NCBI GenBank assembly: GCA_964016885.1
Contig: OZ024743.1
Span: forward strand, 266,972,001 to 267,036,000
Source: Eledone cirrhosa
Lineage: Eukaryota
Length of the DNA: 64,000 nt
Direction: 5' to 3'
Shown: piece by piece, positions 15,200 to 26,750 of the stretch
How the letters are laid out: every line of letters begins with the position of its first letter
Position numbering within the stretch: the stretch's first letter is position 1
Made by a program: the position numbers and the translations under genes
Notes under the pieces: generated by a model
Database searches by the model: none
What the model was told of the DNA's origin: nothing
Seen by the model: only the letters and a program-made list of their open reading frames with translations

Positions 15200-16420
15200 G
15201 AAAAAGTAAGTCCTTCGTCAGTGGCCTTCCAACCGTCCTAGGCATTTCATCACATTAAAGGCCATATACCTCAGGTTGGTGCGAACAACGGATAAAAAAA
15301 GTCGTTGGGACACGTAAATAAAGGGGACGCTAGGGTGAACAAACAAAATGGTTTAAGCAACAGAAAGTGAGAAGAAAGAGACAAGTCCCAGATTTCTATG
15401 AATATAAACTCGGTGAAATCGTGAACGAGAGAATAAAGACCATCAAACCTGGTTGAAATGTGAGCAAGGAAGGAATTTCGCACAGGTCTAACAGGAGGAA
15501 GAAGGGGTCTGGTCTGCGAATTCGGTAAACATAAGTTCTGTGAAGTCGCAGACGAGAGAGAGAGAGAGAAAAAAAATTCATACCGGCTTGGCCAAGAGCG
15601 CGCGAGAAAAGAATTCGGACAGGTCAAACGGGAAGAAAGAGGAGGAGGAGGAGAGGTGGTGACAGAGAATGAGTGAGTGAAAGTTGAGGAAGAGGCTAAC
15701 AGATGAAATGCCTAGGACGGTTGGAAGGCCACTGACGAAGGACTTAATTTTTTATATGTAACCCATTTGCAACGCCGCAGCTCCATTATTATCATATTTA
15801 CACATACATTTTTTCCTCTGCTGCCACCCGTCTGTTTCGTTCTTTGTATCTTTACCCTTTCTAGCAGTCTCTCACTCTCTGTTAACCTCTTCCTCAGCTT
15901 TCACTCTCATTCTCTGTCACCACCTCTCCTCCTCCTCCTCTTTCTTCCCGTTTGACCTGTCCGAATTCTTTTCTCGCGCGTCCTTGGCCAAGCCGGTATG
16001 AATTTTTTTCTCCCTCTCCCTCTCGTCTGCGACTTCACAGAACCTATGTTTACCGAATTCGCAGACCAGACCCCTTCTTCCTCCCGTTAGACCTGTGCGA
16101 AATTCCTTCCTTGCTCACATTTCAACCAGGTTTGATGGTCTTTAGTCTCTCGTTCACGATTTCACCGAGTTTATATTCATAGAAATCTGGGACTTGTCTC
16201 TTTCTAATCACTTTCTGTTGCTTAAACCATTTTGTTTGTTCACCCTAGCGTCCCCTTTATTTACGTGTCCCAACGACTTTTTTTAGCCATTGTTCGCACC
16301 AACCTGAGGTATATGGCATTTAAAGTGATGAAATGCCTAGGACGGTTGGAAGGCCACTGACGAAGGACTTACTTTTTCATATGTAACCCATTTGCAACAT
16401 CGCAGCTCCATTATTATCAT
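15200..16420 (+). mobile_element. Non-coding Penelope-like insertion in (TA)n: inverted copy + 625-bp partial tandem unit + ~38-bp tail
   Basis: 15200-15703 is the reverse complement of 15878-16378; 15702-15797 directly repeated at 16327-16422; CTGACGAAG motif at 15732 and 16357. Confidence 0.75.
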
Positions 16421-16821
16421 ATATATATATATATATATATATATATATATATATATATAAAATATTGAGTTATAAACTCGAAATAGTATTTTACAATTAA
16501 ATAGCTCAAAGACGGAAATATTTCCGAGCCGTATAATACAAATGAATATATGAGGGATGAACACCTATGCAATTATACATGTGTTTCAATTACGTATTAC
16601 TAAGTTAGCTAGGTTGAAAAATACTAATTTAACATAATATGGTTTGCTAGTCTCGATTTAAAATTATAAATCAATAAAAACAACATATATAAATATATAT
16701 ATATAAATATATAGTAATAATAATAAAGTTGAAGACTAAAATCCTCGAGAAGGATAAATATATATCAAATATATAAGAACTGTAGAGTAAATATTTATTA
16801 AAATAATAGATTAAAGTTTAG

Positions 16822-16874
16822 AAGTTTCAGAAGATCCCGTTAAGGATGAAAGCAGCGATTCTTTGCTTAAACTT
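16822..16874 (+). ncRNA. Type I hammerhead-ribozyme-like motif, probably inactive (U4>A)
   Basis: aagttt CAGAAGA tcccgttaaggat GAAA GCA..TGC TT aaactt: stems I, II and III plus core in correct order. Confidence 0.6.
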
Positions 16875-16971
16875 TAATCCGTTATTTTAATATATATATA
16901 TATATATATATATATATATATATATATATATAGGAACAAGTATATATATATATATATATATATATATATAT

Positions 16972-17165
16972 ATAGGAACAAGTAAGACCCCGACGGCTGA
17001 GCTCAAGCCGTTTCGACGGCTAATTCTGTACAGAATTAGCCGTCGAAACGGCTTGAGCTCAGCCGTCGGGGTCTTACTTGTTCCTATTACCCACTCTACT
17101 ACCATAAGTATTGAGTACTTTGGGGCGTTATGGTCCACCTCGTTCCTTACCACATTTCCTTCGTT
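16972..17165 (+). repeat. Perfect 116-bp palindrome (16972-17087) + 78-bp tail in (TA)n; contains 3' half of a hammerhead
   Basis: Centre ctgt|acag at 17029/17030; GAAA-CGGCT-tgagctc-AGCCG-TC at 17045-17067. Confidence 0.85.
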
Positions 17166-18036
17166 ATATATATATATATATATATATATATATATATATA
17201 TATATATATATATATATATATATATATATATATATATATATATATATATATATATATATATATATATTTATATATATATATTCTTTGATAGATATCGGTA
17301 AATAAAAAATTAAGAAAAGCAGTGCTCGAAATGTCGGAAAACAGCTTATTTAGCGTAAACAAAGTTTCATATACTTAACATGCATGTGCTACCATTGGTT
17401 TCGAGGTCCAGTCATGGCCACCTCTGTATAGTAGAGTAGCCACTTTTAAACTAGCCCTTTTCAGTCACGTTTACAAAAATATGAAAAAAGGAAGTTGATG
17501 TTACTAGGCCACATCTCACTTCTAATAGTAGACATCTCTATTCCATGCGTGGTAGGCAGTCATGTACTGAAATCTGTTTGTATATCATTTAATCAAATTG
17601 TTGTTGTTAAAAAGGTAGGGGGAATAAAAGAAAATAATTCGGGCTTTATCAGGTAGATAATTTGATGTATGTAAACGTACACACACGGACACAGGTGATG
17701 AATAATTAAGAGTGATACATAGATAGACATAGATTTTCACGGACAGGTGTGCTTGCACATTGGACACAACTGTACAGGTAGCCATACATGCATCTCTGCA
17801 TACATATATATACAAGCACATATCATGAACATACTCAAACATACCCAAGCATATATATATATATATATATATATATATATATATATATATATATACACAT
17901 ATCTAGATATACATGACTTGCATGATCGCGAACATGAATATTCACTCCACATTTGTGTCATTATCGTGGCTTCACTAATTTTAAGGATTTGAGACGTAGG
18001 AGATTATCTATGTGCTTAGTGTGCTCGTTGAGGGTG

Positions 18037-24384: not shown

Positions 24385-24690
24385 GTTCGACAAGTAGTGT
24401 TCCGTTTATCTATCAACGCAACAGACTCCTCCTGAAATGTCGTGCACAGACAGTACCAATAACATAATTCACAGTGTGATTCAATGTGACACAGCGTGTG
24501 ACATAGCTATCCATTTTAAATAAAAGTATATCCCATACAACCGACTTACAATCAATTTCCGTCTATCCATTTTCGATCCTTGGACGTGGGTGTATTCTAA
24601 TCTATGTAAAATACAGCTTGCTCAACATTTCACGCGATGGGATCTGACCGGGGAGCTATGAAATGAACCTCTTAAACATTCGGACATGTT
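24385..24690 (-). mobile_element. Degenerate SINE-like element (second family)
   Basis: aatgtgacacagcgtgtgaca...tttccgtctatcc...cttgctcaa...cgcgatgggat layout recalled from cephalopod SINEs; not verified. Confidence 0.35.
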
Positions 24691-25799
24691 ATATCCAGTG
24701 CAAATGATAATACTCTTCAGAAAGATACATAAGTAAATATTTTTGTTGTTGACGAAATTATGAGGTATTAGTTGAAATAGAGAATCCCACCGAAACATTT
24801 TCATAGATCAGAAACTGAAAATATATCATATAAGACATATACGCAGCTTAATAATATACCATACGTTGGATTGGGTGACATGCTGCATGGGTGGCAAATG
24901 TAAACCAATAACGTATCTTCAAATATCATAATAGCTTACACCTTATAGATATATATATACACAGAGCAAATATTTGTTTTTACAGATACGCAAGGATAGA
25001 GGTGTAAAAACTAGGGTTTAAAATGAATACCAAATTATAAGTAAACACCTACACCATTATACAATATGTATATATATATATATATGTTTGTGTGTGTCTG
25101 TGCTTTTGTATTATATTATATTAGTCGATCGGCTTTAATATATATATATATATATATATATATATATATATATATATATATATATATATATATATATATA
25201 TATATATATATATATATATATATATATATTTCTATATTTCTATTGGTTCTGCAACATAGCGTTATACACATGTATGTACGAGTTGAATATCGATTGGTTA
25301 AGAAAAGAATTTGAAAGATTATCACTATGTATATTTAAGGTTGAAACCAACGTCACACACCTCATCGCTCAACAGGTGTTAGGAAATAATCGACATTGCG
25401 TTGTTTCATGCTCGTTTGTGCTTATCGAGATAACATATCGTCCTATTTCTGCTGAGATTAAAATAAGCTAGAATCATAGATTTTTAGATTATGTATAAGA
25501 GCTAATGTAGTTCGTTTGCATACAGAGTGGGAGCGGACTCCGATTTAAAATGAAAAAGCTCATATCTATATGAATATAAGCGGTGTAACCGAGACTGCAC
25601 CATCATGTATTAATATATACAAGTGCTTAATTGTGCAGGCCTGTAAACATACCTGCAAATATGTATCACTCTGAAAATTAACATAAAAGATAAGCTTCTT
25701 TTAACCAAATTTCGTGAGGATGTGTATAGCTCTCAATCAACCACAAGGAAACATGTATTTGATGGATATATATATATATATATATATATATATATATAT

Positions 25800-26306
25800 A
25801 AATTTTGTATTTCTAAAGAAATACGGTTTTAGGAAGCTATAGCCATGCAAACACCGAGGCTAACGCCTTCTGGTGGTGTCAAGCAGAAGAAAGCGGGACA
25901 ACCGTCAGGCTTGACTGGCCTTCGTCAGGACAGTCCATCCGACCGCTTGCTACTGCTGGACTTGAAATCAGTCGAGAATATATAGTTTTCTCGTCTGTGT
26001 AAATGAAGTGATTAATCTTATTCGGATATGACTACATATTTTGGCTCAACCACCTCATTTACACAGACGAGAAAACTATATATTCTAGACTGTTTTCAAG
26101 TCCAGCAGTAGCAAGCGTGGGAGGGACCGTCCTGACGAAGGCCAATCAAGCCTGACGGTTGTCCCCCTGCTTCTGCTGGAAACCACCACAGGAGGTTACC
26201 CGGGTGCTTGCATAACTACGGCTTCCTAAAACCGTATTTCTTCAGAAATACGAAATTTCTATACATATTGTATAAAGCTATGCTTGAAGCGATATCTTAT
26301 TTCTCT
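25800..26306 (+). repeat. Imperfect ~210-bp-arm inverted repeat + tail in (TA)n
   Basis: 25800-26013 pairs with 26048-26258; 34-nt loop; tail to 26306; CTGACGAAGGC at 26132. Confidence 0.85.
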
Positions 26307-26322
26307 TATATATATATATATA

Positions 26323-26750
26323 TATATATTGGTAAACGGAATAGAAAATGCTGACAAATTGTTCACAGTTGAAAAATGGTTTAATTAGGAATAAAAGAGT
26401 ATTAGTGATTGTATGGGTTAGTATTCAGTTGTGGTTTTAAGTTTTTAAGTTTTTACCGGTTGCGCATTTCTAAATGCTTTTCAAAAATAATTTTGAGATA
26501 GAGTGTCCGTGCTGATCAGAGCAAACAGCACGGACACTCTATCTCAAAATTAATTTTGAAAAGCATTTAGAAATGCGCAACCGGTAAAAACTTAAAAACT
26601 TAAAACCACAACTGAATACTAACCCATACAATCACTAATACTCTTTTATTCCTAATTAAACCATTTTTCAACTGTGAACAATTTGTCAGCATTTTCTATT
26701 CCGTTTACCAATATATAATAACTTGTGTGTTACACCTCTATTCTTTTAAC
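26323..26750 (+). repeat. Near-perfect 192-bp-arm hairpin + 33-bp tail in (TA)n
   Basis: 26323-26514 pairs with 26526-26717 (one mismatch seen), 11-nt loop atcagagcaaa. Confidence 0.92.

Follow-up and report, generated by a model that had tools for sequence, protein, structure and literature searches.

Structure of the inserts

The 64,000-nucleotide stretch of the Eledone cirrhosa genome analysed here (the window; contig OZ024743.1, positions 266,972,001 to 267,036,000 of the forward strand) is AT-rich, microsatellite-rich, animal-type DNA in which many (TA)n runs are concentrated in a block between 10.4 and 30.1 kb. Four inserts in these runs, E1 to E4, consist of a left arm in inverted orientation, a right arm and a tail on the right-hand side, a layout that a preliminary description had proposed and that was recovered in all four. 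With high probability, they are the 5'-truncated 3' ends of several Penelope-like element (PLE) families; a linked open reading frame (ORF) for reverse transcriptase (RT) or GIY-YIG was not found in the window. PLE insertions are described as partial tandems with an adjacent inverted, 5'-truncated copy, a tail of 30-40 bp at one end and (TA)n targets (PMC8557442). The same layout is reported in PMC3846280, where self-priming was proposed from palindromic head-to-head junctions. Such a structure, a preference for (TA)n and self-priming at palindromic junctions have all been published before, and E1 to E4, judged by their sequence, are very probably new members of this described insertion signature.

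E1 is preceded by a (TA)n run at 15163-15199. Its inverted tail-less arm (15200-15703, minus strand), a copy of 15878-16382, overlaps at 15702-15703 with an inner direct copy of the tailed 3' end (15702-15797, plus strand), which is 95.8% identical to 16327-16422 and resembles the partial tandem of a pseudo-long terminal repeat (pLTR). The long copy (15798-16382) and a tail of 36 nt (16383-16418) follow on the plus strand and lead into (TA)n at 16419-16459, so that an inverted arm is succeeded by a direct copy of the tailed end, 96 nt in length, and then by a 625-nt copy. The preliminary description was right about the arms and the tail of E1 but overlooked the direct copy at 15702-15797. The arms agree in 486 of 501 positions (15200-15703 versus 15878-16378, 15 mismatches). 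Over a shared 56 nt, the inverted arm is identical to the outer copy and shows two differences from the inner copy. The inner copy terminates in ATAT, remote from TA runs, and the fold skips 174 nt with an overlap of only 2 nt. The partial tandem, a pLTR feature, occurs in E1 only (1/4), which could represent a non-autonomous unit of 625 nt whose overlap is 96 nt. Compared by eye, E1 showed no likeness to the Octopus Naiad 3' ends.

E2 follows a (TA)n run at 16890-16974. A perfect inverted tail-less arm (16975-17029, minus strand) adjoins, with a spacer of 0 nt, the right arm (17030-17087, plus strand), and the two form a perfect palindrome at 16975-17084 (55/55). The tail (17088-17164, plus strand) is 77 nt long and carries, at 17094-17119, a motif that resembles the 3' end of Hydra-2_Amil. 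The right arm includes the 3' half of a type I hammerhead, with GAAA at 17045-17048, a 5-bp helix III and a predicted GUC cut after 17067, as aligned by eye with the core given in PMC4209133. Outside the TA runs, E2 holds no frames of the size used in the ORF search. The left flank is broken at 16933-16940 by a short repeat of the left end of E2, whose first 8-10 nt recur there, and 16899-16984 is made up of a 42-bp unit present twice; the repeat may reflect an aborted start or slippage.

E3 is preceded by (TA)n at 25766-25800. The inverted tail-less arm (25801-26030, minus strand) faces a right arm (26047-26263, plus strand) with the hammerhead motif CTGACGA at 26132-26138, and the tail of 43 nt (26264-26306, plus strand; 48 nt if counted from 26259, the first mismatch) is followed by (TA)n at 26307-26329. 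Its arms are the most diverged of the four, with 183 matches and 25 mismatches between 25801-26011 and 26050-26257 (183/208), and the spacer is about 20 nt or less. E4 begins directly behind this run with its inverted tail-less arm (26330-26514, minus strand), continues with a right arm that includes an 11-nt loop (26514-26717, plus strand) and ends in a 33-nt tail (26718-26750, plus strand) and (TA)n at 26751-26771. The E4 arms (26330-26514 and 26526-26710) differ at one position (184/185).

In all four inserts (4/4), the inverted 5'-truncated copy lies on the 5' side, and a tail-less end is paired with a tailed one (4/4). The measured tails (36, 77, 43-48 and 33 nt in E1 to E4) agree with the lengths of about 38, 78, 40-48 and 33 bp given earlier, and the identity of the arms (97%, 100%, 88% and 99.5%) ranges from perfect to diverged, as had also been noted. 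Barring gene conversion, this divergence would mean that the insertions, from young to old, occurred in the order E2, E4, E1, E3. The tail-less arms do end at an internal TA motif, which overlaps the phase of the (TA)n run by 4, 3, 4 and 7 nt in E1 to E4, the value for E3 being counted past one mismatch. Random points in the arms give an overlap of at least 3 nt in 4.2%, at least 4 nt in 1.5% and at least 7 nt in 0.17% of cases.

The preliminary description regarded the inserts as unrelated. This holds for extended similarity, which was not seen in any of the six pairwise comparisons (best p 0.043), but not for two short matches. E1 and E2 are identical in 15 of 18 nt that end exactly at the tail-less site, the pattern behind this match having been derived from E1 and E2 themselves, and the tail of E2 matches a neighbouring insert at 26772-26881 (p 0.007). 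A scan of the whole window with microsatellites masked returned six inverted pairs less than 1.6 kb apart, namely E1 to E4, another pair in E1 and one weak match of 41 bp; local inverted repeats are restricted to the E1 to E4 inserts.

Family-wide ends in sequencing reads

Reads from four of six listed runs were mapped at 85% likeness on 25801-26881, which covers E3, E4 and the insert at 26772-26881, a fifth, non-inverted stub on the plus strand that is flanked by (TA)n runs, has a Hydra-clade-like hammerhead core and shares its tail motif with E2. Two of the runs are contig sets (X1 and X2) from one sample, possibly the source of the assembly; the other two are restriction-site-associated DNA sequencing (RAD-seq) runs of other samples from another study. 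The three inserts belong to high-copy families, since 5844, 6108, 9436 and 8732 records were mapped per run. The results given here come from the best 24 of 991 loose ends, 40 of 124 substitutions, 15 of 32 joints and 16 of 12050 pieces.

The tail-less end of E4 (26717) is a fixed family site that is followed by (TA)n. Loose (TA)n ends after this position number 47 and 39 in the contig sets and 775 and 831 among the RAD reads from the two samples of the other study, where they amount to about 56% and 49% of the read depth in the preceding bin. The remaining E4 reads pass 26717 into the tail, in a bin that is partly censored by repeat skipping. Two family-wide 3' ends are demonstrated for E4 only. 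Upstream of 26514, the family sequence extends further in 1874 and 1543 reads; because the reads continue there, the centre of the E4 palindrome is a truncation point, and the 11-nt loop is part of the tailed arm. Many reads match only the E4 segments 26514-26551 and 26383-26492 and then diverge, which suggests subfamilies with common modules. The resemblance between E4 and a Naiad end from a bivalve was put down to chance.

The E3 family carries an intact hammerhead, and both arms of E3 are 10 nt short of it. In 37 and 40 contigs (X1 and X2), extra letters after 26155 make up the missing part of a minimal type I hammerhead whose helix III is palindromic. The same 10 nt, carried by the family copies, are missing from both arms (in the right arm after 26153-26155); they correspond, with a 2-nt ambiguity, to the stretch from hammerhead G12 to position 17 and end at the predicted cut site. 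The deletion form appears to be rare, because the summed contig depth in X1 is about 12,900 at 26145 but only about 140 at 26162. Contigs of the E3 family switch strand elsewhere, at 25978/26090 and at 26117/26156; either switch is present in one X1 contig and one X2 contig. Of the 25 differences between the arms, 17 are private to either the left (11) or the right arm (6), which implies that the two arms were alike at first and decayed later. An origin of the arms from two subfamilies was dropped on the same count, with the other eight differences not among the substitutions listed. The likeness of E3 to the Naiad_Obim 3' end was judged to be chance.

Hammerhead motifs

The right arm of E4 contains a minimal hammerhead of the U3-A8 type (26556-26586) with one core change (GCAA). 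A non-inverted relative of E4 at 11899-11990 (minus strand) ends at a (TA)n run and has an intact U3-A8 minimal hammerhead from 11942. The latter was the single match of a strict hammerhead descriptor in 10400-30100, where 0.005 matches per simulated region were obtained as a null; relaxing the descriptor by one core base added the left arm of E4. By eye, full hammerhead cores are present at 18194 and 26773, and degenerate, non-canonical hammerhead-like pieces occur in E1 near 16303-16345. Patterns for Hydra-like ends match only the E2 and fifth-stub inserts; having been blended from the window and the supplement of PMC8557442, they are partly circular and not phylogenetic. The Rfam microRNA matches on the hairpins stay under the gathering scores. 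Exact patterns of E4 and E1 had 0 matches each in the JGI metagenomes.

The Penelope-like identity put forward in the preliminary description finds support in the combination of fixed tail-less and tailed 3' ends, the hammerhead motifs, the partial tandem of E1 and fold points that vary in other copies.

Formation of the inverted arms

How the inversion and the tail of PLEs are formed is still described as unresolved (PMC11167929, PMC8557442). For the present inserts, it is moderately probable that they are PLE 3' stubs made by nicking of (TA)n, priming at the tailed end and fold-back copying. An element-encoded nuclease would nick the (TA)n run, and reverse transcription would begin at the tailed end (both steps being modelled on PMC11167929) and then stall. 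The stalled cDNA would fold back and copy itself up to the fixed TA-rich site, and this site would then pair with the far side of the cut. Repeated insertion into TA runs may have produced the chain of inserts at 25.8-27.2 kb.

The closest competitor, in itself unlikely, invokes the same PLE families with priming from two sides: nicks on both strands of the self-complementary (TA)n, starts at the tailed and at the internal TA-rich site, and joining of the cDNA 3' ends by microhomology. The PLE protein of Anolis Poseidon (PAc) speaks in its favour, as it nicks and extends both strands, initiates at two sites, one at each border of the tail, and has a predicted dimeric structure (PMC11167929). 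The (TA)n run would also provide equivalent primers on the two strands, the tail-less end lies at a site fixed in the family, ATAT stands at the tailed end of the inner E1 copy as well, the tail-less arm of E3 seems to extend further 5', and the E1 fold skips 174 nt with its 2-nt overlap. On the other hand, independent cDNAs should seldom stop 0-20 nt apart, as they would have done in E2, E3 and E4, and both the pairing of tail with tail-less end in 4/4 inserts and the longer tailed arm in E1 and E4 are at odds with such independence. It is fairly probable that the arms arose by fold-back rather than by two-sided priming. Fold-back is favoured because the spacers of E2, E4 and E3 are 0, 11 and about 20 nt or less, because E1 and E4 have a tailed arm that exceeds the tail-less one in length, because both E3 arms lack the same 10 nt and because these arms began alike. 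The route of the preliminary description, reverse transcription primed at (TA)n with snap-back second-strand synthesis, thus fits the short loops and the shared E3 deletion, but two-sided priming yields the same product, and the route had already been published. No publication that proposes TA-pairing or two-sided priming for PLE inversions was found in a search that left the subscription reviews of PLEs from 2005 and 2006 outside its range.

A number of results weigh against PLE stubs formed by fold-back. The Poseidon PLE starts in vitro at both tail boundaries and on both strands, and it does so, as reported, without target homology (PMC11167929). The E2 tail of 77 nt exceeds the usual 30-40. 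E3 reads match the tail-less arm to at least 26025 and the tailed arm only from 26051; an excess reach of about 15 nt on the tail-less side runs opposite to fold-back, a weak objection at an old locus. A piece spanning 25801-26881 is not among the best 16 of 12050 pieces, nor is a RAD read joint among the best 15 of 32 joints, and the RAD reads may derive from few loci. The strict descriptor misses E1, E2, E3, the right arm of E4, the fifth stub and 18194, a hammerhead is not among 48 Rfam matches with E up to 5 in 10000-31400, and a canonical hammerhead core was not found in E1 by Rfam or the descriptor scan. None of seven motif segments folds better than its shuffles (z -1.23 to 0.91). In a Pfam search, none of the 17 short frames that cover E1, E3, E4 and two further stubs matched RT or GIY-YIG, which is as expected because the inserts are stubs.

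Three further explanations do without a PLE copying its own cDNA into an inverted arm. If a single PLE stub had been inserted first, later host repair of a break in the fragile (TA)n might have made the fold-back duplication. Non-inverted stubs do lie in the same block (11899-11990, 26772-26881 and about 18020-18443), and fold-back repair is a general process; yet the duplicated arm halts at the family-wide tail-less site and excludes the flank, and local inverted repeats are confined to these inserts, which makes this course very improbable. Library or assembly chimeras would account for the near-perfect palindromes of E2 and E4, whose arms are 100% and 99.5% identical, and the locus-specific folds of the E3-E4 stretch are absent among the listed independent read matches. 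A chimera would, however, neither stop at the tail-less site of a family nor leave an 11-nt loop derived from it, and the arms of E1 and E3 have diverged by 3% and 12%, with changes private to either side, so that an artefact is very improbable. A MITE (miniature inverted-repeat transposable element) or a DNA transposon of the foldback type, having long terminal inverted repeats (TIRs) and TA target sites, shares with the inserts the long inverted arms in a TA context, the absence of coding capacity and the high copy number. The symmetric TIRs by which, according to the preliminary description, a DNA transposon would be recognised are not present: the ends are asymmetric, with one-sided tails, and the centre varies among copies while the family continues beyond it. 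Together with the single-arm relatives, the hammerheads and the direct partial tandem in E1, this leaves such transposons as the least probable origin.

The position of the E3 deletion at the ribozyme cut site is suggestive. A more far-reaching proposal, which is distinctly doubtful, is that the tail-less site acts as a built-in TA template pairing with the target, that the mirror arm comes from a second priming on the opposite strand, and that the 10-nt gap of E3 marks a jump of the RT across self-cleaved RNA and hence an in vivo trace of the ribozyme. Thousands of such stubs would make the formation of inversion and tail countable from one genome. In a genome with many small, datable copies, counting which arm owns the spacer and whether tails occur at both ends would separate the models. 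As a known PLE insertion signature, the inserts are mainly useful for annotation: short PLE 3' ends usually end up among the unknown repeats (PMC8557442), and such stubs can be mistaken for MITEs, microRNA hairpins or assembly errors.

Surroundings of the inserts

Another single-arm insert, at 18020-18443 (plus strand), ends at (TA)n and is probably a further PLE 3' end. It has a full minimal hammerhead at about 18190-18248, with a 4-bp helix I, a long helix II and a palindromic helix III. Between 25766 and 27190, (TA)n runs split a chain of at least five different inserts (E3, E4, the fifth stub, 26902-26967 and 27038-27171), which suggests serial insertion into one microsatellite. More short inserts flanked by (TA)n runs, for which an inverted partner is absent, lie at 14325-14464 and 11772-11884.

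Outside this block, 1-10330 and 30100-64000 are densely filled with copies of long interspersed nuclear elements (LINEs) of the APE/RT type with zf-RVT, mostly terminated by (AAT)n. The copies at 4218-5702 and 47346-48830 are 99% identical, and an ORF of 1204 aa is located at 57581-61195, in the LINE-filled right part of the window. According to a Pfam search, the long ORFs of the window are pieces of APE/RT LINEs, with none from a PLE. A diverged full-length match to U2 small nuclear RNA (snRNA) at 12094-12282 (plus strand; 48.2 bits versus a gathering score of 46 in Rfam) is likely a pseudogene. Short dispersed repeats resembling short interspersed nuclear elements (SINEs) or MITEs, 75-79% identical, occur at 21506-21590, 22513-22590, 27845-27929, 22331-22368 and 22714-22751.

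Comparison with known elements

The inserts are like the endonuclease-bearing PLEs with inverted pLTRs, as described in PMC3846280 and PMC8557442, in having an inverted, truncated 5' copy, a tail at one end and a partial tandem. They share with them also the palindromic head-to-head junction and the microsatellite target, in which a target site duplication (TSD) is not discernible; flanks of the (TA)n type would conceal a TSD, a point made in PMC8557442 as well. They differ in being stubs of 0.2-1.2 kb without an ORF and in the 77-nt tail of E2.

As to the clade, E2 and the fifth stub are tentatively Hydra-like, and E3 and E4 would belong to hammerhead-bearing PLEs. For the Hydra clade (Hydra-1_Amil, Hydra-2_Amil, Hydra-2_Ajap and Hydra-1_Obim), PMC8557442 gives (TA)n in nearly all listed families and a canonical type I hammerhead near the 3' end; in its supplement, (TA)n is the target entered for Naiad and Hydra families of Octopus. 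The core of the fifth stub is like Hydra-1_aMil and the tail motif of E2 like the 3' end of Hydra-2_Amil, in a comparison by eye and with short patterns only, while E2 differs from this clade in having just half a ribozyme. When E1 to E4 were compared with the consensuses of the supplement using terms of 9-12 nt, a telling match was not found except for the Hydra-2_Amil 3' end, in a file whose line breaks can hide matches. The hammerheads of the E3 and E4 families would argue against the Naiad clade, which lacks a canonical hammerhead and has an N-terminal endonuclease. In Octopus vulgaris, 31 recently active PLE families are reported (PMC13282606), and the families of E1 to E4 could be among that library.

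Metazoan PLEs carry minimal hammerheads, which in Schistosoma occur in pairs on opposite strands, 100-700 bp apart (PMC4209133). The motifs described here resemble them in the extra base after position 9, the G10.1-C11.1 pair, the palindromic helix III and the U3-A8 core; they differ in that the cores of E3, E4 and E1 are damaged. Non-LTR retrozymes (PMC7229834; bioRxiv 10.64898/2026.07.22.740005) are likewise non-coding, hammerhead-bearing and PLE-related. An assignment to them was rejected, since the head-to-tail arrays of whole units that mark these elements are absent at the present loci, which have inverted arms and tails instead.

The Poseidon element of Anolis carolinensis (PMC11167929) is similar in its two fixed 3' ends bounding the tail, its AT-rich targets and the hammerhead near its 3' end. 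Initiation by Poseidon is reported there to proceed without homology to the cut DNA, whereas in the inserts of Eledone an overlap of 3-7 nt exists between the tail-less site and the (TA)n target.

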